Part shown: positions 757 through 32,079 of the stretch, piece by piece | Numbering within the stretch: the stretch's first letter is position 1 | How the letters are laid out: each line of letters starts with the position of its first letter | DNA from: a virus | IMG/VR virus record: IMGVR_UViG_3300025880_000003 | Location: 1 to 34,301 of that record | Strand: one strand, 5' to 3' | DNA: 34,301 nucleotides | The notes under the pieces: generated by a model | What the model was told of the DNA's origin: nothing | The model's input: only the letters and a program-made list of their open reading frames with translations | Databases searched by the model: none | Translations under genes and position numbers: made by a program

Positions 757-1938
757 CTACTGTTGTACCTGAGTGACGGCGACCAAGACCGCAGGGGCTG
801 CTGGAGCAAAAGCCGTTGCCGCACTAGCGTCTAACCATAAATTCGTATCGTCAACGGCAAACATAATCTCAACGTAGTCACTAGCGTTTAAAGAAATAAA
901 ATCCGTTTTATGCAAAATGCTGTATTCGCTGTTAGCCGATAGAGTAAGTCTGTTTGATGAGTCAGCTATGTCAACACCATTCTTGCGGAACCAGAACCAA
1001 CCATTCTTTGAGCTTGCGCTGTTTGACAGCACCTGAAAGTTTACCGCGAAGCTGTAAAGCCCTGAATTAGCCGCGACCAGTCTGGATGCTGGCGTCCCCA
1101 AAGTTATTCCGTTAGCGACCTCTGTCGTGTCGAATACAACTGAAACCGCAGTATTGATTGACCCAGCAACCTGATCAGTGGTCCGGGCAAACTGACCGTA
1201 ATACTTCTGCTGCTCAACAATTGGGTTAACGAATATCTCGCCCTCAGTCGCGCTAACAACGACCACAATCGCAACGGGTATCGATATATTCGGGGCCGTT
1301 GGCTTCACCTTCGTAAAGGCTCCAGCCGTGGTTGGGCTTGCGTATAATTCGTCACCCTCAGCCCATGACTCGCCCTCTGCGCTGCCGGTAGTGTCAATGC
1401 CTCGAACATTGCCGAAGGTCGTTACGAACCCTATCTCGCCATTTAAAATGTCCTGAGTAGCCACCCCAAAAAAGTATTCAGACCGATACGTCCCGTCTGC
1501 AATGTAGTCCAGAAACTCAAGCCTGTTCTGCCCGTTTACCCCAGCAAACCCAATCGTTGATCCGTTGGTAATCGTGGATCCTGTGTTGTTGCGTCCGTAG
1601 ATATAGGTCTCTTGGCCTACCTGCTGGACTACACCACCAGAATGATGGAGGTTTAGAGTGTCATCAAACGCATTCCAAACCACGCGAGCATCTTTGTCCG
1701 CGTGTGGTGCGGAAGGATTAAAGTCGATGTAGTCGGTCTTGAGGTGATTAGTGTCTACCGCCTGATTCGCGGTGTTGGAGGCCAACTGAGCGATGATCTC
1801 AACGTCAACAATCGTGTTATCGCTGCTGCCAGCGTCCACAGTGTCAAACAGCTTTTCAAACTGGATGATCTGCTCGTGATCCTTCAGGAAAACCGCTAAC
1901 TGATCCCGGGTTAGTCCTAGTCTTGACTTTCTAGCCAT
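757..1938 (-). CDS. Tail needle or central fibre candidate with a C1q/TNF-like C-terminal jelly-roll domain (393 aa).
   Basis: It directly follows the gp10-like hub gene, the position of P22 gp26. The C-terminus VVFDTTEVANGITL...SGLYSFAVNFQV...FRKNGVDIA...DYVEIMF follows the C1q-type pattern. Confidence 0.5.
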   Translation of the reverse strand: MARKSRLGLTRDQLAVFLKDHEQIIQFEKLFDTVDAGSSDNTIVDVEIIAQLASNTANQAVDTNHLKTDYIDFNPSAPHADKDARVVWNAFDDTLNLHHSGGVVQQVGQETYIYGRNNTGSTITNGSTIGFAGVNGQNRLEFLDYIADGTYRSEYFFGVATQDILNGEIGFVTTFGNVRGIDTTGSAEGESWAEGDELYASPTTAGAFTKVKPTAPNISIPVAIVVVVSATEGEIFVNPIVEQQKYYGQFARTTDQVAGSINTAVSVVFDTTEVANGITLGTPASRLVAANSGLYSFAVNFQVLSNSASSKNGWFWFRKNGVDIADSSNRLTLSANSEYSILHKTDFISLNASDYVEIMFAVDDTNLWLDASAATAFAPAAPAVLVAVTQVQQ

Positions 1939-1939
1939 C

Positions 1940-3349
1940 TTAGTAGGCCAACGGCTCTACCTGAGCCTCTAGTCGTGCAAATGATATGTGAGCGTCAGAC
2001 TCGCCCCTGAAGCGTTGTATGCGCCAGTTAATCATTGACCCCTGTTGAAACCAAACCAGACGCTTGTTTCGGTTGCCCTGAGTACCAACCTTGATTGATC
2101 TCGATTGTGACCAATTCTCACCGTCAACAGAGTAGCTTGTCGTGATCACAGGATTAGTCCCAAACGCAACCCGCCCGGTCAATGCAACCAGCTCTAGTTC
2201 GTGGAATATCGCGCCCCGACCCTCGTTGTAAACAATGTTCGTGCTGAACTCCCAGCTAACCTTCTCGTCATAATGCGATCCGATGGTGTTCTCGAAGTAA
2301 CCTATCGTCGATGACGTTGGGTCACCAATGAGCCACTTGTTATAGCACCAAACAATGTCCCGGGCCTTATACCGCGCCAATCCAACCGTTGAGCTGGACA
2401 GTACAAACCAGACGGGAGTATTTGTCGCCTGCGTAGCCGTCAGGTCGAACACAATAGTCTGATCTGGAAGATGAACGTATAGGTGCTGATGGTTTCGGTC
2501 GTTTCGGGCCTCAAGCTTCACCGTAGATAACTGGACCTCGGTGTAGTCGGTCAAGACCTCGTCAATTTCTTTGGTGGATATTTTGTTGGCCTGAGCGTTA
2601 ACGCCCATGAAGATACCCGGGCTTTCGTTCCTACCGCTGCCCAAAAACGCAATTGTCTCAACAAAAACACAACACGCCTGAGTGCCTATGACGCCCTTCT
2701 GAATCTGAGCGCCCTCAACCCTTTGGAATGGGAACAGATTGCCGCCCACGTTATCAAACACCTCAATGGTGTGCCGGTTGAGCGCGTATATCTCGTTTCT
2801 AAGCTTAACCAAAGCCACCACGGGGTCAGGATCAATTTCAGATGATCCGTACTTCAGAGGATTGACAGCAAACGGGTCCAGAAGCTCAGTGACCACTAAG
2901 AATTCACCGTCCGTGGTCATGAAGTAGCCGTCAACCCAAACGACATCGAGAACCGGACCCAGATCTGGATCGGTTACCTGATCAACCGTGGTGCCGTTCC
3001 AATAAAAAAGCTTTTGACCGCTGGCGATTGCTAAAAGGTCAAACGAGTAGGTCATCGTGACCAGATTATCATCAGTACCACCTACGTCACCTAAGACCGT
3101 AACAGCTCCGTCAGCAGCGATAGAGCAGAGCTTGGTGCCCATAACCCGGTAGCAGACGCCGTCTCGTTCGATTCCACCGCGATTAACGCCCGGACCCTCA
3201 CCGTTCTTCACCAGACCGTCAGCGGGGCGCAGATAGCCGTTGCTGATCCCTGACTGCTTAGGTACAGGAATTAAGTTTCTAGGATAACTTGTGCGGATCT
3301 CTGCCTGAGTGTCATCAGTAAAAATACCGTTAAGGATTGGTATCTGCAT
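1940..3349 (-). CDS. P22 gp10-like tail hub / packaged-DNA stabilisation protein (469 aa).
   Basis: The size matches P22 gp10. Its N-terminus (SNGYLRPADGL...GVNRGGIERDGVCYRVMGTKL) resembles my recollection of P22 gp10 (SSGYLRSFPG...GVSRGVEYN..VYRVCGGKL). It has a beta-propeller-like repeat character. Confidence 0.7.
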   Translation of the reverse strand: MQIPILNGIFTDDTQAEIRTSYPRNLIPVPKQSGISNGYLRPADGLVKNGEGPGVNRGGIERDGVCYRVMGTKLCSIAADGAVTVLGDVGGTDDNLVTMTYSFDLLAIASGQKLFYWNGTTVDQVTDPDLGPVLDVVWVDGYFMTTDGEFLVVTELLDPFAVNPLKYGSSEIDPDPVVALVKLRNEIYALNRHTIEVFDNVGGNLFPFQRVEGAQIQKGVIGTQACCVFVETIAFLGSGRNESPGIFMGVNAQANKISTKEIDEVLTDYTEVQLSTVKLEARNDRNHQHLYVHLPDQTIVFDLTATQATNTPVWFVLSSSTVGLARYKARDIVWCYNKWLIGDPTSSTIGYFENTIGSHYDEKVSWEFSTNIVYNEGRGAIFHELELVALTGRVAFGTNPVITTSYSVDGENWSQSRSIKVGTQGNRNKRLVWFQQGSMINWRIQRFRGESDAHISFARLEAQVEPLAY

Positions 3350-3358
3350 TTTTTCAAC

Positions 3359-3421
3359 TCAGTAGCCGGGTTTAGGTTTAGGCTTAGGCTTTCGCTTAAT
3401 TACTTTCTGCTTGGGCCACAT
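3359..3421 (-). CDS. Possible 20-aa lysine/proline micro-ORF (MWPKQKVIKRKPKPKPKPGY).
   Basis: Its ATG overlaps the upstream stop as TAATG (3419-3423). It is below the ORF-track cutoff. The KPKPKP part is encoded by a TTAGGY x3 tandem repeat. Confidence 0.25.
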   Translation of the reverse strand: MWPKQKVIKRKPKPKPKPGY

Positions 3422-3570
3422 TACTTTTTCTTCGCGGTCTTAGCTGCCTGCTTAAATGCCTTAGAAGATGGAGCGCCTTTAGCGCCGGGCTTCCGCATCT
3501 TCTCACCTGAACCTGCCGCGATTCTTTTCTTCTTCGCCGCGATGTTTGCGTACAATCCTTTACTAGCCAT
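3421..3570 (-). CDS. Small highly basic protein (49 aa, MASKGLYANIAAKKKRIAAGSGEKMRKPG...AKTAKKK).
   Basis: ORF 3421-3606, trimmed to the ATG at 3570, which overlaps the upstream stop (TAATG). It has about 13 Lys and 2 Arg against 1 acidic residue. Confidence 0.5.
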   Translation of the reverse strand: MASKGLYANIAAKKKRIAAGSGEKMRKPGAKGAPSSKAFKQAAKTAKKK

Positions 3571-3824
3571 TACGATCTCCTTGACTTGGTGCCTGAGCAC
3601 TTCCAACGCTGCCGAGATAATCTCAGCGGTGAGTTTGGGTTTGCAGCCGCCTTCGGGTTCTTCTTCATCTGACCGGCAGATCTAGCGCAGTATGCGTCAC
3701 CCTTCTTAGTCCCGGGCTTAACTCTAGCCCCGCCACCGCTGGCCTGACCGGCCTGACCGTAGCTGACCTTCTTGCCTGCTGCGGTTACCTTGACCTTTGC
3801 CTTACCCTTTGCCGGTGTAACCAT
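3570..3824 (-). CDS. Small highly basic protein (84 aa).
   Basis: ORF-track entry. It begins 1 nt after the upstream stop. It has about 14 Lys and 7 Arg against 1 Asp. C-terminal part: CARSAGQMKKNPKAAANPNSPLRLSRQRWKC. Confidence 0.5.
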   Translation of the reverse strand: MVTPAKGKAKVKVTAAGKKVSYGQAGQASGGGARVKPGTKKGDAYCARSAGQMKKNPKAAANPNSPLRLSRQRWKCSGTKSRRS

Positions 3825-3825
3825 T

Positions 3826-4260
3826 TTACAATCCTGCGGTTACGCTCATGAAGATGGATGCAGACGCCAAAATATTTGAGAGAACCGCTGTCTCTGCAAT
3901 TTCAATAGTGTATGTGCCGTTTGTATTTCCTACCGCCGTCCGCTCAAGACCCCAATAATAATCAACACTCAGAGGCAACCATGTCCCGACCAAAGCTGAT
4001 CCGCTTTCATTTGGCCCAGTGCCACTGGCTACCGTCAAACGTATTGAGTAATTTGAGCTAGTGCCACCTCCAATAAGCCAAGTGTACGTTTCACCGCCAA
4101 CCGTTGCAGTCACAAGTATGCTTCCGCTGGCGTTAGCGCGAAAATTAGCTGTCGCCGTAAATGGCGAAACTGCAAGCGCCGAGTAGTTGTTATTCTTTAG
4201 ATACGCGGCCAACGCACCAGAGGATGCAGTACCAGATGCTGTGCGAGCAGCAAAACTCAT
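3826..4260 (-). CDS. Hypothetical beta-rich protein (144 aa). May be a fibre-associated or distal fibre component.
   Basis: ATGA overlap with the upstream 386-aa fibre gene. Ser/Thr/Gly/Ala-rich composition typical of fibre modules. Confidence 0.45.
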   Translation of the reverse strand: MSFAARTASGTASSGALAAYLKNNNYSALAVSPFTATANFRANASGSILVTATVGGETYTWLIGGGTSSNYSIRLTVASGTGPNESGSALVGTWLPLSVDYYWGLERTAVGNTNGTYTIEIAETAVLSNILASASIFMSVTAGL

Positions 4261-9108: not shown

Positions 9109-11766
9109 TTAACGGCCTTCTTGTGAGGTCCAGTCTGGCATTAACCCGGTTTTTTGTTCTGCGAAAACCGTACCCTCTAGCTTGGCTGTCCTGTTTTTGT
9201 CTCCATAAGGACCGTAGTTCAGCCAGCTATTTTGACCCCTAGTTTCTGTCGTCAAAGCTTTTAAAGCATCGCCTGTAAACAACCTAGCGTGAGCCTGCCA
9301 AGCGTTCTCTTCTCCTCTAGCCCTAAAGCCAGCCCCTTCTAAACCATGACCGAAAGCGTCATGAACAGCCCTAAACAAGTCGTTAGCGGTAACCACTTGC
9401 TCTACGCCATCCTGATCCTTCCAGCGTAGCCCGGTATCTTTTAGCATTGGATTCTTAGCAATCGCTGCGCCTGTGATGCCTTTCGTTCCATATCCATCAT
9501 AAGTGCCATAAACAGCCATGCGCTTATTTTCTCGCAAATCGCGCATAGCATTTAATGGATTCCCGTCATACGGGTCGCTGTTTGAATCAAAAAACGAAAA
9601 TTCATAACCGTCATCTGCCAACGCCTGATATTGATAATTCGTTTGCCGAATCAAATCTTCGTAAGCGGCTTTGACTTTCGGGTTGGTTGGGTCATGCGGC
9701 ATATCTTCGTATGCTTGAGCAATCCTTTCTGAACGCTCCCTGTTTACTTTGTAGTATTCCGGTTGTCTGGAGAGGGGGATCCCGGCTGCCTCTGCATATT
9801 TTTCTGCGACTGAGACTAGCCTTGGGTCGGGTCCGGTCGCTCCTGAAATAACCGGCGCACCTTCAAGCGGCGCAAGGCCTCCGCTCGAATAGCGTCCTCC
9901 TCCGTTTCCGGTCCGTTTGGATCCCATTCCATCTCTTGCCTCAAGTCTCCTCTGGGCGCGGACGGATCTCTGACTGGGGCTAATTGCTCTGAACCCGCTG
10001 AGCGTTGCTCCCGGTTCAGCCGAAGTTTCAATGCCATCGCTTCGGCGAACTGCTGGTCGTACTCCGAGTTGCTCATTAACCTTCTCCATACCTTTTGAAA
10101 ATGATCCGGGTCTTGATACCACACCAAGATCCGTAAATAGGTTCTGCTCATAGAACCACAGAACAGCCTGTATATCCTGTTCAGACAAGCCTGTATCCTC
10201 AAGCTTGGCTTTCATCGCTGTAGTGAATTCTTCCATCCTACGGCGTTCTGTTGCGCTTCTAGGGCCGCCCATCGGCAACCCTTTGTTGTCTTTCATATTG
10301 CCAAAGTGACGGTTGTAGGTTCGACTAAACCAAACGTCCTTTGTCGGACCCTCATAACCGTTTAGGTTTAACGAATATTTCCCGGTCTTGTCACCGAGAA
10401 CCATTGCACCTAAATGCATACTGTTCTTGCCGCCACTTAAACCTGAAGGGGCGCCACTTAAACCAGCAGCTTTTCTGACTGCCGTCAATTCTCCTAAAGT
10501 GTGAGGGGACAACCACCAATCGGCAAAGCCTTCTTCACCTAAATCTGTGATCAGCCTGTCGATTACTTTCATACCAGCAGCAACTGACTGTTGCTTTGCG
10601 CCCCAACCGGCTCCCTTCAACCCTTCGGTGACTGCGCCAGCTTTTGGCGGAGAGGTGGGTATCTTACCAGTTTTTTTGTATTGAAGCATCGCTGCTGTTG
10701 CAGCTTTTGTGTTTAGGTCTACGTTATTACCGATTGACGTTGGTGCTGCAATGGCGGTCCAGATCACTCGATCCGTTTCGTTGTTACGCATACTCTTCAG
10801 CGCGGGTATTTCTGCCATCGACTCAAAAGTTGTTTTAACGTCCGTGTCATACCAGCCAGCGCCTGTTTCAGATTGTTTTAGCTGGTAACCGACCTCGTCT
10901 GCTGCGGCGTCTATCGCTGTTCTAAAGTCTGTTTCATCGTATGGATCTAACTGCCGACCATATCGAGCCAAATGATCTTCTTCAAAGTAATCAACTAAGT
11001 CTTGAATTTTAGGTTTTTTGTTGCCCCTAGCCGCAGAAATATTTTTGACCTTCTGAAGCTCCTGCTCTCGGATCGTTTCATCGAATCGTATGGGGGCCGA
11101 ACTGCCGGGTAATTGCGCCCCCAACATCGCTTCTTGTTGAACCTGAACGCCGGGAGTTGATGGCATTTCAAAGTTGACAGGTTGTGCTGTTTCAACAATG
11201 CCGGTTCCCTCGAACACCTCATCGCCTGACATCAAAGAGGTTGGCTTTTCCGCTACATCAGCAGTTGATGAACCTTTACGCCCAGCTCTGCCTATTAACG
11301 GGGCCATCGCGCCCAATCCCTTTAAACCTAGCAAGTTTAACGGGTCACCGATCATTTCAACGCCTGTTGCGTACAGCGGGCTTCCTGTGATGTCCATTGC
11401 CTGCTGGCCCATGTATTCTGCCGGGGCAGTTAGCGGTGACAGTGTTTCACCAAACCTTTGGACGTATTCTTGGCCTTTCTCTGATTGCGGCATGTAAGTC
11501 ATAGCGCGCTGTACGTCTTGAACTGCCTGAGCTGCCTGAGCAGGATCTCGGGTCATTGCCAATTGACCTAAGCCAGCCAATCCAGCAGGAACTGACGCCG
11601 GGAGTGCTGTGCCGATGGTTGCAGCAGCTTCGCCCAATCCGGTCATTGAAGGCGCAGCGTCACGCCGAACTGGTCCGTAAGGCGTCATTATGTAGTCTTC
11701 TGTTCTGCGATCAGTTAGACCGCTCGAACTCAAGATCTGCATCGCTAGTTCGCGCATTGAAGCCAT
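9109..11766 (-). CDS. Large multidomain putative virion/injected protein (885 aa) with an unassigned C-terminal HDAFGH-containing domain.
   Basis: It lies between the portal and the scaffold. Its N-terminal block is shared with the 681-aa protein. It has disordered Gly/Ser/Arg linkers. The C-terminal roughly 230 aa (AYEDMPHDP...NDLFRAVHDAFGHGLEG...GEENAWQAHARLF...TTETRGQNSW) look like a globular enzyme-like domain. Confidence 0.5.
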   Translation of the reverse strand: MASMRELAMQILSSSGLTDRRTEDYIMTPYGPVRRDAAPSMTGLGEAAATIGTALPASVPAGLAGLGQLAMTRDPAQAAQAVQDVQRAMTYMPQSEKGQEYVQRFGETLSPLTAPAEYMGQQAMDITGSPLYATGVEMIGDPLNLLGLKGLGAMAPLIGRAGRKGSSTADVAEKPTSLMSGDEVFEGTGIVETAQPVNFEMPSTPGVQVQQEAMLGAQLPGSSAPIRFDETIREQELQKVKNISAARGNKKPKIQDLVDYFEEDHLARYGRQLDPYDETDFRTAIDAAADEVGYQLKQSETGAGWYDTDVKTTFESMAEIPALKSMRNNETDRVIWTAIAAPTSIGNNVDLNTKAATAAMLQYKKTGKIPTSPPKAGAVTEGLKGAGWGAKQQSVAAGMKVIDRLITDLGEEGFADWWLSPHTLGELTAVRKAAGLSGAPSGLSGGKNSMHLGAMVLGDKTGKYSLNLNGYEGPTKDVWFSRTYNRHFGNMKDNKGLPMGGPRSATERRRMEEFTTAMKAKLEDTGLSEQDIQAVLWFYEQNLFTDLGVVSRPGSFSKGMEKVNEQLGVRPAVRRSDGIETSAEPGATLSGFRAISPSQRSVRAQRRLEARDGMGSKRTGNGGGRYSSGGLAPLEGAPVISGATGPDPRLVSVAEKYAEAAGIPLSRQPEYYKVNRERSERIAQAYEDMPHDPTNPKVKAAYEDLIRQTNYQYQALADDGYEFSFFDSNSDPYDGNPLNAMRDLRENKRMAVYGTYDGYGTKGITGAAIAKNPMLKDTGLRWKDQDGVEQVVTANDLFRAVHDAFGHGLEGAGFRARGEENAWQAHARLFTGDALKALTTETRGQNSWLNYGPYGDKNRTAKLEGTVFAEQKTGLMPDWTSQEGR

Positions 11767-21173: not shown

Positions 21174-22082
21174 ATGAAGATTCTTGATTTATTCTCGGGC
21201 ATAGGCGGGTTTAGTCTAGGGCTAGAAGCCGCCGGGTTTGAGACCGCAGCCTTTTGTGAGTACGACAAAGAAGCGCAAAAGGTGTTACGCAAGAACTGGC
21301 CTGACGTTCCAATATTTTCAGATGTTAAAACTTTGACCAAGCAGGAGCTCCACGACAATGGAATACAGGACATCGGACTTATTTGCGGCGGATACCCATG
21401 CCAACCCTTCAGCATCGCAGGACAACGGCGTGGCGCAGAAGATGACCGCCATCTCTGGCCTGAAATGTTTAGGCTTATCCAAGAACTCAGGCCCACTTGG
21501 GTCATTGGAGAAAATGTTGCTGGGCACATCAATATGGGCCTCGACGAAGTGCTCACTGACTTGGAAGCAGAGGGCTACACCGCAAGGACGTTTGTTATTC
21601 CAGCTTGTGCCGTCGATGCTCACCATAGACGAGATCGAGTCTGGACTGTTGCACACGCCAACAGCGAAAGCGAATCAGATGGCCCCAAGCATGAACAGCG
21701 GATGGTGGAGAACGCCAGCAGCGGATCAGGGCGGGACTCCGAAAGCATTATTGGAAGGCAAGACAACGAGGCCGAGCGGTCACAAGATACAGATACGATT
21801 ACAAGATCAGGTGAAAATGTGGCCCACACCGCTTTCGGGATCAGCAAAAGGCGCTCCAAAAAACAGGTACCGGGGATCGGAAACTTCTCACGGGAATCTG
21901 GAAGAAGTGGTCAGGACCAGCCCAGAAGATGGTCAGTTGAACCCAACGTGGGTCGAGTGGCTAATGGGGTTCCCAGAAGGTCACACAGACTTAAACAGCT
22001 AGGCAATGCGGTAGTGCCTCAAGTGGTTGAACAAATTGGTAAGGCAATATGGAGCGTAGAATATGGAACCAACCAGAGTTGA
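21174..22082 (+). CDS. DNA (cytosine-5)-methyltransferase, main frame (302 aa).
   Basis: Motif I DLFSGIGG. Motif IV GGYPCQPFS. Motif VI ENV. Motif VIII-like HHRRDRVW. Motif X LGNAVVPQV. The segment between VIII and X is low complexity. Confidence 0.8.
   Translation: MKILDLFSGIGGFSLGLEAAGFETAAFCEYDKEAQKVLRKNWPDVPIFSDVKTLTKQELHDNGIQDIGLICGGYPCQPFSIAGQRRGAEDDRHLWPEMFRLIQELRPTWVIGENVAGHINMGLDEVLTDLEAEGYTARTFVIPACAVDAHHRRDRVWTVAHANSESESDGPKHEQRMVENASSGSGRDSESIIGRQDNEAERSQDTDTITRSGENVAHTAFGISKRRSKKQVPGIGNFSRESGRSGQDQPRRWSVEPNVGRVANGVPRRSHRLKQLGNAVVPQVVEQIGKAIWSVEYGTNQS
21358..22002 (+). CDS. Nested +1-frame ORF (214 aa) carrying MTase variable-region / motif-IX-like peptides. Status uncertain: overprinted gene, recoded segment or remnant.
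   Basis: The frame is open from 21337. AGGAG lies 10 nt before the ATG. Peptides: LLHTPTA, WWRTPAAD, MWPTP, LNPTWVEWLMGFPEGHT. The stop TAG (22000-22002) abuts motif X of the main frame. Confidence 0.4.
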   Translation: MEYRTSDLFAADTHANPSASQDNGVAQKMTAISGLKCLGLSKNSGPLGSLEKMLLGTSIWASTKCSLTWKQRATPQGRLLFQLVPSMLTIDEIESGLLHTPTAKANQMAPSMNSGWWRTPAADQGGTPKALLEGKTTRPSGHKIQIRLQDQVKMWPTPLSGSAKGAPKNRYRGSETSHGNLEEVVRTSPEDGQLNPTWVEWLMGFPEGHTDLNS

Positions 22083-30033: not shown

Positions 30034-32079
30034 TTATTCGGCTACTTCACTTCCGGTTGGCTCTTGTTCCTGCCTTCTGAGGATCTCCTCGATGGCCCTG
30101 ATGGCGTTTTCTTCGTTTATGCCTCTAACGGCCTCGCCTAACTTGCCAACAAGCATTACGGCCTTCTCAGCGGCGCTACTGCGCGCAAAATCAGAACCCT
30201 TTTGCAATGCCTGCTCGATTTGGCCCTTGAATGATCCCGGGGCTACTGCGCCGAACATTCGGTCAATTTCGTTAACAAAAATAATCTGATTAATCAAGTC
30301 ATCTTTGATTTGTAAGCCGTATTTTTTAGCAATCGTTTCAACCCTGTCTATCGAGTCTATGATTGTATTTCTTGACCCGTAGTTACTTAAAACCTTTCTT
30401 AGCGCAGTGCCAAACGCTTCGCCTGCCCGATCGCTTTCAAAGTTTACCTTCTTGCCAACAGCTTCCTGAATATCGTCTAGCGCCTGCAATGATTCGCTGA
30501 ACCGGGTGTTTGCCTCTCGGTACTGAGGGAACGTATCACCTAACGCTGTGTTTAGGTTTCGACGTAACTTTTTAACAACCCTCTCGGCCTGCTGCGTTAA
30601 CGGATTGGCCCGTCTTTTACCGTAATCAACCTGCGTATCAATGTACCTTTTAGCCGTATGCACACCATAAGCATCAGGCACATCAGTGTCACCCAATCTT
30701 TCAAGGACTCGGTTTAACAGGGTTGCTCCTGCCCGGTCGCCCTCAATGTCTGAGCCTTTCAAGTTAACTTTAAATTTGCCATTAGAACCGCGCTCTACCG
30801 CAACACCTATATCAGCCAAGTCACTAATGAACTGTGACATTGGTTGATCAAAATTAACAGGCTGTCCTCTAAGCTGAGTCTGGGCAATCCTATCGACCTG
30901 TTTACCGCTTTCTTTTCGTACATTCATCAGGAAATTGACACGCGACATCATTGAGTCGCCAAGAACCCCTGACGGCCTGTTCTTAGCGGCGAAGGCTGCG
31001 CGCTTCTTGCCCAGCTTTAAAATGTTAAGCATCTTTTGCATCTGACGCTTATCAAGATTACTAGACGCCTTTATTGACCCCAAAACCGCTGGATCAAATC
31101 CCTGTTTGATTGCTTCAGTTGCTTGAGGGTCTGCCTGCACCCGGTCGTTAACAAGTCGGAACTCAACAACCTCTGAGCTGTCAGGCTGACTTTTCAGCGT
31201 GTCTCTAGTCTGTTGCGTTCTGCGCTGCTGCATCGCCTCAATGTTAGCGGCTACAGCCTCACCAGCTCGTCTGACTGGCTCCATTGTCCTTGTCGCAGCG
31301 GCTGCAACGGGCTGAATAACGCCCTGCTGTACTGCTTGTCGAACGGGTGGCGGGACCATTACGTCCATAGCCTCTCGACCAGTTTCTTGAATCAGTTGAC
31401 CACCCATTCTTTGAACAGCGGGTGGACCACCGGCCCTAGCAGCTTGAGCCGCACCTGCCAATCCAGCACGAATCGCACCGGCCTCAGCCGCGAGTGGAGC
31501 CATTGCAGGCAACTGACCTAAAACGTCTGCGGTTTCCTGAACGTATTCTTGCCCTAGCTCTGTGCGAGGCATGTAAGTCGCTTCACCAGCGCGGCCCATA
31601 GCCTTTTCCTGAATCATTTGAGCCGCCTGTGGCGTACCAAACTCACCGGAAAGTATTTGTTCAGCAAGACCCTCTAAGGTTCCCCGAACCATCCCGCCAG
31701 CGCCAACGGTAGCGCCTGAAGCCAAGGTCATTAAGACCTCTGCCGCACCAATTAGCTTGTCTTGAAGTGCGGGGTCAACTTGTGGCTCAGGAGGCGGTGG
31801 CATGATCGGACGCCCGTATGCGTCAAGTATCGGTGTCTCAGTCTGGGCGGCAAACATTTGCTCTTCTAAAGTGCCACCTGTAACGCCAGAAGGCTCGGGC
31901 GGAAAAACTTCATCGCCCCTCATCAGCGGAGTTGCGGCAGGACCAACGTCACCAACGACTTGCTCAGTCATAACCTCTTGAGAAACTTCTTCTACGGGTA
32001 TGCCGCCAAATTCATCGCGCATACCGACAGAAACTTCAGTCTCTTCTTCTACTTCGATTCCACCAAATTGATCAGGCAT
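30034..32079 (-). CDS. Putative internal virion / ejection protein (681 aa).
   Basis: By position it is analogous to the P22 ejection proteins. N-terminal tandem: DQFGGIEVEE / DEFGGIPVEE. It shares motifs with the 885-aa and 457-aa proteins. Confidence 0.45.
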   Translation of the reverse strand: MPDQFGGIEVEEETEVSVGMRDEFGGIPVEEVSQEVMTEQVVGDVGPAATPLMRGDEVFPPEPSGVTGGTLEEQMFAAQTETPILDAYGRPIMPPPPEPQVDPALQDKLIGAAEVLMTLASGATVGAGGMVRGTLEGLAEQILSGEFGTPQAAQMIQEKAMGRAGEATYMPRTELGQEYVQETADVLGQLPAMAPLAAEAGAIRAGLAGAAQAARAGGPPAVQRMGGQLIQETGREAMDVMVPPPVRQAVQQGVIQPVAAAATRTMEPVRRAGEAVAANIEAMQQRRTQQTRDTLKSQPDSSEVVEFRLVNDRVQADPQATEAIKQGFDPAVLGSIKASSNLDKRQMQKMLNILKLGKKRAAFAAKNRPSGVLGDSMMSRVNFLMNVRKESGKQVDRIAQTQLRGQPVNFDQPMSQFISDLADIGVAVERGSNGKFKVNLKGSDIEGDRAGATLLNRVLERLGDTDVPDAYGVHTAKRYIDTQVDYGKRRANPLTQQAERVVKKLRRNLNTALGDTFPQYREANTRFSESLQALDDIQEAVGKKVNFESDRAGEAFGTALRKVLSNYGSRNTIIDSIDRVETIAKKYGLQIKDDLINQIIFVNEIDRMFGAVAPGSFKGQIEQALQKGSDFARSSAAEKAVMLVGKLGEAVRGINEENAIRAIEEILRRQEQEPTGSEVAE

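Follow-up and report, generated by a model that had tools for sequence, protein, structure and literature searches.

What is a second long open reading frame (ORF) doing inside a phage gene for a DNA cytosine-5 (C5) methyltransferase, on the same strand and in the +1 frame? The question is raised by IMG/VR virus record IMGVR_UViG_3300025880_000003, of which positions 1 to 34,301 were analysed (hereafter the window, 34,301 nucleotides). Its methyltransferase locus consists of one gene nested in another on one strand, beta (the +1 frame) lying wholly within alpha (the main frame). A preliminary description, made from the letters of the sequence, had proposed that the 214-codon +1 ORF encodes the variable-region segment which the main frame lacks, together with an equivalent of motif IX, and had offered as explanations an overprinted second protein, an enzyme assembled by recoding from main to +1 to main frame, or a trans-acting specificity subunit. 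The variable-region part of that proposal is borne out: after motif VIII the ratio of nonsynonymous to synonymous differences per site (pN/pS) is 0.32 in the +1 frame against 1.5 in the main frame, and the +1 product is one of a family numbering over 1100 predicted proteins. A trans-acting subunit from an overprinted ORF fits the evidence and has a precedent in M.EcoHK31I (PMC2836561), and the locus is most likely a two-subunit DNA C5 methyltransferase made from two fully nested genes on one mRNA.

Both reading frames are under selection

For the comparison of frames the locus was divided into four zones -- A, alpha residues 1-61, and D, motif X, both free of overlap; B, where beta residues 1-103 lie over alpha motifs IV-VIII; and C, where beta residues 104-213 lie over the alpha variable region, B and C being dual-coding. 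Stop codons were counted after permuting the synonymous codons of whichever frame is the better conserved, its protein sequence and codon usage being kept. When the main-frame codons of the window are shuffled, a mean of 3.4 stops appears in the +1 frame over motifs IV-VIII and none of 300 shuffles is stop-free, in agreement with the earlier judgement that so long an off-frame run is unlikely by chance; when the +1-frame codons are shuffled, a mean of 3.0 main-frame stops appears downstream, with 3.7% of shuffles stop-free. The third frame has 5 stops in each of these two parts. Across loci the shuffles lead one to expect 2.9 stops in beta in zone B and 3.4 in alpha in zone C, with a chance of about 5% per locus of finding none; none was found in either zone in any of the 77 homologous loci analysed, in which the third frame carries 5.8 and 7.8 stops (zones B and C, respectively).

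The constraint on each frame was estimated as pN/pS by the Nei-Gojobori method from 55 pairs of close relatives. Outside the overlap only the main frame looks coding: in zone A it gives 0.15 (pS 0.72), as against 1.76 for the +1 and 2.43 for the third frame, and in zone D 0.32, as against 1.40 and 1.29. In zone C the relationship is reversed, with 1.50 for the main frame, 0.32 for the +1 frame (pS 0.50) and 1.16 for the third, and the beta variable region taken by itself (21646..21921) also gives 0.32, with a pS of 0.59. Over the spacer, alpha values of 1.4-1.5 are like those of the third frame; downstream of motif VIII purifying selection acts on the +1 frame and not on the main frame. In zone B the main frame gives 0.30 (pS 0.24), the +1 frame 0.74 and the third 1.74, the beta value standing against 1.7-2.4 for off-frame controls. 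Alpha, then, prevails up to motif VIII, with measurable constraint on beta; beyond it the coding frame is beta, and alpha evolves like a non-coding frame that is merely barred from acquiring stops.

The similarity among N-terminal halves of beta might be taken for a mere by-product of alpha conservation, but this was rejected because the synonymous sites of alpha are themselves constrained: they evolve about three times more slowly in zone B than in zone A, and over 59 non-redundant loci the entropy of the third codon position of alpha is 1.05 bits in zone B as against 1.66 and 1.74 bits outside the overlap (Mann-Whitney p=2e-17). The near-invariant Leu130 of alpha is written TTG or CTG in 58 of these 59 loci, whereas these two codons make up 35% of leucine codons outside the overlap; they are the only leucine codons that give Trp69 (TGG) in beta, which accounts for the restriction. 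In the last 25 codons of beta, where its motif-IX-like segment is read over the peptide preceding motif X in alpha, the pS of beta is 0.20, which suggests constraint from both frames.

Signals for a separate start of translation were sought in the same 59 loci by scoring Shine-Dalgarno (SD)-like motifs 4-18 nt upstream of the beta start, with positions inside the same genes as background. Such a motif precedes the start in 49 loci, compared with 14% for the background (binomial p=4e-32); the start codon itself is ATG in 45, TTG in 11 and GTG in 3, and an in-frame stop usually lies 0-10 codons 5' of it. In their sequence these signals, including the AGGAG and ATG of the window, agree with translation of beta independently of alpha. 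The overlap is selected and does not reflect chance, and both of its frames are under selection.

The alpha and beta families, their spread and rearrangements

Alpha is recognised by PF00145 at 168 bits (cut-off 22) and by phrog_363 at 291 bits, and has motifs I (FxGxGG), IV (PCQ), VI (ENV), VIII (RxR) and X (GNxVxP) in this order on one polypeptide. Its best match among PDB sequences is M.HhaI (3e-20), aligned at residues 2-160 and again at 268-291, which includes motif X. An AlphaFold2 model built with 75 homologues is confident over residues 1-164 (predicted local distance difference test, pLDDT, mostly 77-96 except in the catalytic loop, residues 76-91) and again over residues 278-300 (79-87), with a helix at 282-300; residues 165-277 are disordered, with values of 24-43 and below 50 throughout. 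Foldseek matches this model to M.HaeIII and M.HhaI over about 168 columns, which cover the large domain only. By pLDDT, pN/pS and Foldseek alike, a folded small domain -- target-recognition domain (TRD) plus motif IX -- is not present between motifs VIII and X of alpha, just as the preliminary description had noted from the absence of anything recognisable there.

Beta has no match in Pfam or NCBIfam, nor did its profile match any protein, methyltransferase or other, among PDB sequences. It does match phrog_1008, "DNA methyltransferase", over residues 7-212 (E=4e-31), and a search of 5.8 billion proteins returned 1125 predicted homologues, almost none of which has a Pfam domain and most of which are unnamed or "hypothetical". 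In an alignment of 107 homologues T100, T119, P120, P156, T157 and P158 are nearly invariant, as is the segment LNPTWVEWLMGFPEGHT, and the number of [W/L]xTPxA units per homologue ranges from 1 to 8. In a low-confidence AlphaFold2 model of beta, residues 66-86 form a hairpin and WVEWLMG a short helix.

Related loci were analysed from viral contigs and genomes of many phyla, 165 in all. Beta is +1 relative to alpha in every one, is never found apart from the N-domain of a C5 methyltransferase, and is accompanied in 156 of them by an alpha that runs as a single uninterrupted ORF from motif I to motif X. The fully nested length varies from 180 to 354 codons, and beta identities among loci range from 32% to 99%, that is, these are not copies of one misassembled sequence. 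At least 589 beta loci are present in IMG/VR and at least 478 in GTDB (one genome per species), the latter in many bacterial phyla and a few archaeal metagenome-assembled genomes (MAGs); hosts include Bacillota, Bacteroidota, Pseudomonadota, Planctomycetota and Patescibacteria besides the archaeal MAGs. Independent assemblies show the layout, and so do the genomes of phage and bacterial isolates. In tblastn searches Paenibacillus larvae phages keep both frames at the same place, at about 39% identity each, and many Paenibacillus phage records annotate two overlapping "DNA-cytosine methyltransferase" coding sequences, the second of which is beta; a comparative paper on Paenibacillus larvae phages names both genes without discussing the overlap (PMC6070908). 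Weaker matches to beta occur in phages of Lacticaseibacillus, Burkholderia, Escherichia, Erwinia, Vibrio, Bacteroides, Porphyromonas and a cyanobacterium, as well as in plasmids of Bacillus and Paenibacillus. When alpha alone was used as the query, the best phage matches all proved to contain beta as well, and a complete beta is present even in the short (260 aa) enzyme of phage Harrison and in a distant enzyme of a P2-like E. coli phage.

Several individual loci may be recorded here. Escherichia phage ESSI2_ev129 (P2-like; L086) has two adjacent annotated DNA methyltransferase genes, at 415-1266 and 1263-2273; the second encodes a distant C5 enzyme extended at its N-terminus and also contains a full beta-like ORF in the +1 frame, this ORF having three GWPTPT units. 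The chromosome of an uncultured Roseovarius MAG (OX638333.1) holds five alpha/beta copies with identical match statistics (L101-L105) at about 33 kb, 80 kb, 166 kb, 4.48 Mb and 4.53 Mb, about 46-86 kb apart and straddling the start of the record; tandem prophages could account for them, or concatemers of phage DNA that were assembled into the chromosome. Nested beta homologues are also seen on contigs binned as archaeal, L154 (Methanotrichaceae MAG) and L163 (Methanoregula MAG), which may be archaeal viruses or mis-binned phage contigs.

The nested order has been undone at least twice. In L002/L003, which come from two independent samples, and, as a separate case, in L164 from a Bacillota MAG, alpha ends just after motif VIII and beta runs on in frame into motif X ("...PRVA.G...R..R.K.LGNA.VPQ"), while the former spacer frame is full of stops. 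As judged from their gene structure, these variants indicate that beta and motif X act in the same enzyme, and that the only role of the alpha spacer would be to keep motif X attached. Database proteins P0239, P0215 and P0219 join the N-domain of alpha to the C-terminal half of beta in one chain. Among the 240 proteins retrieved, no single-frame protein carries motifs I-VIII, the TP repeats, motif IX and motif X together; partial fusions and frame-switched entries are all that is found.

Frame-switched entries include P0142, P0154 and P0162 (on contigs of 34.5 kb, 40 kb and 0.8 kb), with an alpha N-domain more than 90% identical to that of the window; each is a single protein that passes from the alpha to the beta frame, at differing points, and ends at the beta stop without motif X. 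They may be natural frameshift variants, pseudogenes or assembly errors. Downstream of the alpha peptide that is read over the motif-IX-like segment of beta ("SRLGGVLDGLSDWLD"), phage Tadhana (L001, 1266-2336) has the pre-motif-X peptide once more, clear of the overlap ("EPARIETGVQNRVGRLKALGN"), and P0229 likewise has two copies, with a large insertion between them; because of these second copies the C-terminal module of alpha seems to begin at "W.PEP", its overlap with beta differing between lineages.

Automatic annotation easily loses one of the two genes. Gene callers that forbid nesting give alpha or beta, never both, and for L002/L003 and L004 the metagenome gene caller reported the beta-frame ORF only and missed the methyltransferase N-domain: in L004 (ENA contig NODE_1042) the missed alpha has 434 aa (2829-4133) and in L002 the missed ORF, with motifs I-VIII, lies at 2474-3091, so that in these contigs a methyltransferase is hidden behind an unnamed ORF devoid of domains. 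Assignment of methylomes to genes, for instance by REBASE-style matching, needs both ORFs, and alpha expressed alone would probably be an inactive enzyme.

What beta may contribute, and the alternatives

The claim that beta also carries an equivalent of motif IX stands as to pattern and position, while its statistical support is weak. The segment LNPTWVEWLMGFP has the spacing L-x-P-x5-L-M-G-F/Y-P, the same as in LTPRECARLMGF of E. coli Dcm, and when the beta profile was aligned to Dcm with hhalign the only match fell exactly on motif IX, RRLTPRECARLMGF. Yet that match has an E value of 0.18, and it is the first of several points that count against the two-subunit enzyme proposed here. BLASTP of P0100, a natural fusion of beta and motif X, against Dcm was not significant; in short constructs of motifs IX-X PF00145 scored motif X only and not LNPTWVEWLMGFP; and the beta profile found no methyltransferase among PDB sequences. 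AlphaFold2 predicts beta alone poorly (mean pLDDT 52, with 107 homologues), a result which fits a subunit that would fold on its partner and proves nothing. Because the related loci were collected by their similarity to beta, the openness of the +1 frame in them is biased, that of the main frame not. Finally, the literature places the TRD of M.EcoHK31I in alpha, whereas in the window the variable region of alpha is a disordered, off-frame-like spacer and the conserved variable region is in beta; either the window family differs, or the older M.EcoHK31I assignment was positional only.

Some room is left for the view that beta is a genuine overprinted protein with no part in methyl transfer, perhaps a regulator, an anti-defence factor or a DNA-binding protein that merely shares DNA with the methyltransferase gene: there is the lack of any Pfam, NCBIfam or PDB match, the weakness of the motif IX link and the absence of a predicted fold. 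We nevertheless consider this unlikely, since alpha shows no folded structure at the place expected for a small domain and motif IX, beta is fused in frame to motif X in two independent lineages, P0239, P0215 and P0219 join the alpha N-domain to the C-terminal half of beta, beta sits beside a C5-methyltransferase N-domain in 165 of 165 loci, the best hhalign position, for all its E value of 0.18, is exactly motif IX, and there is the precedent of M.EcoHK31I (PMC2836561).

Still less is to be said for recoding, by which one polypeptide would be made through a +1 frameshift after motif VIII and a -1 shift just before motif X. A main-to-+1-to-main chimera does read like a complete C5 methyltransferase and scores slightly above the main frame on phrog_116 (204 vs 198 bits), CACAC contexts occur at both possible junctions, and there is indeed an A_AAA_AAC heptamer (21858-21864) that is in phase with the +1 frame, as had been pointed out in the preliminary description. 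As a functional slippery site, however, the heptamer does not hold up: L005, with a beta 99% identical, and L006 (93%) have AAAGAAC in its place, and other close relatives lack it, while an in-phase X_XXY_YYZ heptamer is found in just 12 of 59 loci, at scattered, non-homologous positions. On PF00145 and phrog_363 the chimera scores below the main frame. Recoding, moreover, requires neither the roughly 110 open main-frame codons of the spacer nor the roughly 100 open +1 codons 5' of the shift, both of which are maintained against an expectation of about 5% each; beta has its own conserved SD motif and start codon, its upstream 100 residues are constrained, and M.EcoHK31I, the analogue studied experimentally, yields two polypeptides (PMC2836561). 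The usual marks of programmed frameshifting, a conserved slippery site and a zero frame that is dispensable downstream, are not seen here, and this origin of the enzyme is very unlikely. That there should be no second gene at all, the +1 ORF arising from codon composition, main-frame conservation, or compensating indels or assembly errors in a decaying gene, is hardly credible: gene callers do normally give only one of the two frames, and P0142, P0154 and P0162, with their odd points of frame switching, may be erroneous entries or pseudogenes, but synonymous shuffles still predict about three stops per zone, the +1 pN/pS is 0.32 exactly where that of the main frame is 1.5, and the layout is found in independent assemblies and in isolate phage and bacterial genomes.

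On the two-subunit reading that we prefer, alpha would be translated from 21174, its large domain with motifs I-VIII providing S-adenosylmethionine (AdoMet) binding and catalysis. A spacer of about 110 unstructured residues would follow, the sequence of which is unimportant though its frame must stay open, and the helix of motif X would fold back onto the large domain. Beta, translated independently from the internal AGGAG-ATG (21343-21360), would supply in trans what single-chain enzymes have between motifs VIII and X -- a conserved variable region of [W/L]xTPxA units, probably DNA-recognising, and a motif-IX-like helix, LNPxWVEWLMGFP -- while its first hundred or so residues, overprinted on alpha motifs IV-VIII, probably mediate association with alpha. 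That the two subunits assemble physically, that both are needed and that the regions of beta have these roles we infer from the analogy of M.EcoHK31I, from the natural gene fusions and from the motif pattern.

A more far-reaching suggestion, which we put forward tentatively and regard as somewhat less probable than not, is that alpha and beta rank, in length and in breadth of conservation, among the foremost same-strand gene overlaps of prokaryotic viruses, and arose through two compensating frameshifts around the small domain of a single-chain ancestor; beta would have kept the TRD and motif IX and gained an association domain of about 100 residues over motifs IV-VIII, and the alpha reading would have decayed to a disordered tether. 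If this is true, the 1-8 [W/L]xTPxA units would be a modular DNA-recognition element, and target specificity would be set in trans, where it could be swapped or expanded without touching the catalytic subunit. The hundreds of diverged copies also form a natural data set for the study of overprinting and dual-coding constraint, with a built-in contrast in the un-nested variants whose spacer frame has filled with stops.

The locus in its genome and beside known systems

The features of the locus are collected in Table 1. The coordinates given in the preliminary description for the main ORF, motif I, PCQ, GNAVVP, the open +1 frame, its ATG and the AGGAG were all reproduced, as were those of LLHTPTA, WWRTPAAD, MWPTP and LNPTWVEWLMGFPEGHT; EPNVGRVANGVPRR in the main frame is indeed the other reading of NPTWVEWLMGFPEG, and the +1 stop does fall at the start of motif X. 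A correction is needed for ENV, which had been placed at 21507-21515: that stretch reads GEN, and ENV occupies 21510-21518. The +1 frame is open from 21337, after a TGA at 21334-21336, and the beta stop directly adjoins the codon for the motif X glycine in 23 of 57 non-redundant loci.

Table 1. Features of the nested methyltransferase genes in the window
Feature	Position	Strand	Basis or remark
alpha gene, C5-cytosine methyltransferase large subunit, motifs I-VIII and X	21174..22082	+	302 aa; PF00145, phrog_363
alpha residues 1-164, folded catalytic and AdoMet-binding domain	21174..21665	+	AlphaFold2, main-frame pN/pS
alpha motif I, DLFSGIGG	21186-21209	+	read from sequence
putative beta ribosome-binding site AGGAG, 10 nt 5' of beta ATG, inside alpha codons	21343..21347	+	
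beta gene, +1 frame, 214 aa, first ATG 21358	21358..22002	+	phrog_1008, conserved layout
beta residues 1-103, overprinted on alpha motifs IV-VIII (zone B, dual-coding)	21358..21666	+	
alpha PCQ (motif IV)	21396-21404	+	read from sequence
alpha ENV (motif VI)	21510-21518	+	read from sequence
alpha HHRRDRVW (motif VIII, RxR)	21621-21644	+	read from sequence
beta variable region, repeated [W/L]xTPxA units	21646..21921	+	LLHTPTA 21646-21666, WWRTPAAD 21703-21726, MWPTP 21817-21831
alpha residues 165-277, G/R/S/E-rich spacer tethering motif X to the catalytic domain	21666..22004	+	open, not conserved as protein
A_AAA_AAC heptamer, in phase with +1 frame	21858..21864	+	judged not functional
beta LNPTWVEWLMGFPEGHT, motif-IX-like segment, overlapping alpha pre-motif-X peptide EPNVGRVANGVPRR	21937..21987	+	
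beta stop TAG, made by Leu-Gly codons (cTA Ggc) at start of alpha motif X	22000..22002	+	
alpha motif X GNAVVP (22002-22019) and C-terminal helix	22002..22073	+	pLDDT 79-87, PF00145 positions 299-322

The window is the genome of a tailed phage and encodes portal and major head proteins, a tail fibre protein, an Erf-like annealing protein and primosomal proteins; the methyltransferase gene lies among small early genes, in an early or recombination module. No restriction enzyme or other endonuclease gene was recognised among the window genes scanned; for these two reasons the enzyme is probably an orphan with a protective function. Megablast of the locus DNA against a phage collection gave no match, and the phage is known through metagenomic relatives only. 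In the structural region the ORFs at 9109-11766 (-), 757-1938 (-) and 30034-32079 (-), of 885, 393 and 681 aa, have no PHROG match or a marginal one.

In its large domain and its order of motifs, I-VIII and then X, the window enzyme is like the single-chain M.HhaI, M.HaeIII and E. coli Dcm (PF00145), from which it differs in that the segment between VIII and X is off the catalytic polypeptide and is read from the +1 frame as a separate protein. The C5 methyltransferases of Bacillus phages SPR, phi3T and rho11s are orphan, multispecific enzymes, with a variable region made of several tandem recognition modules; they are single chains, and their TRDs are in frame. The window enzyme shares with them that it is phage-borne and has repeated units, here the 1-8 [W/L]xTPxA units of beta, a likeness to be taken only as a lead with regard to specificity modules.

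M.AquI of Agmenellum quadruplicatum (Karreman and de Waard 1990, as cited in the later paper PMC3404938) is a C5 methyltransferase that occurs naturally as a heterodimer, its chain being divided within the variable region. The relatives L002/L003 and L164 resemble it, with motifs I-VIII on alpha and the variable region, the putative motif IX and motif X on beta. The window itself does not have this type of split, for its motif X is on alpha and its beta is fully nested. The two ORFs of M.AquI have a short overlap only, and to our knowledge no region of its small subunit is overprinted on motifs IV-VIII.

M.EcoHK31I of E. coli HK31, which recognises YGGCCR, is described in later accounts as a two-polypeptide C5 methyltransferase (Lee, Kam and Shaw 1995, via PMC2836561 and PMC3404938), and needs both polypeptides for methylation (PMC2836561). 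Removal of the beta start codons by changes silent in alpha abolished methylation in vivo, beta provided from a second plasmid restored full protection, and N-terminal deletions of beta weaken the association of the subunits (PMC2836561, PMC3404938). As in the window, beta is encoded wholly within the alpha gene, on the same strand and in another frame, and the window has an alpha of the same type, with motifs I-VIII and X. In enzymes of this type motif IX is assigned to beta, for which the window offers the motif-IX-like segment as a candidate. The calculated masses of the window proteins are about 34 kDa for alpha and 23.5 kDa for beta, and the names of the M.EcoHK31I plasmids pET3a-M38 and pET3a-C23 suggest, as we read them, products of about 38 and 23 kDa. 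The likeness is one of architecture as described; blastn of the locus against complete E. coli genomes gave no match. M.EcoHK31I differs in being part of a restriction-modification system; the window gene belongs to an early module of a phage, and none of the genes scanned was recognised as an endonuclease. Since its kind of architecture is already known from M.EcoHK31I, though rarely recognised, the window locus is a new member and not a new principle; what had been described for the E. coli enzyme appears to be common among the C5 methyltransferases of phages and prophages in many phyla.

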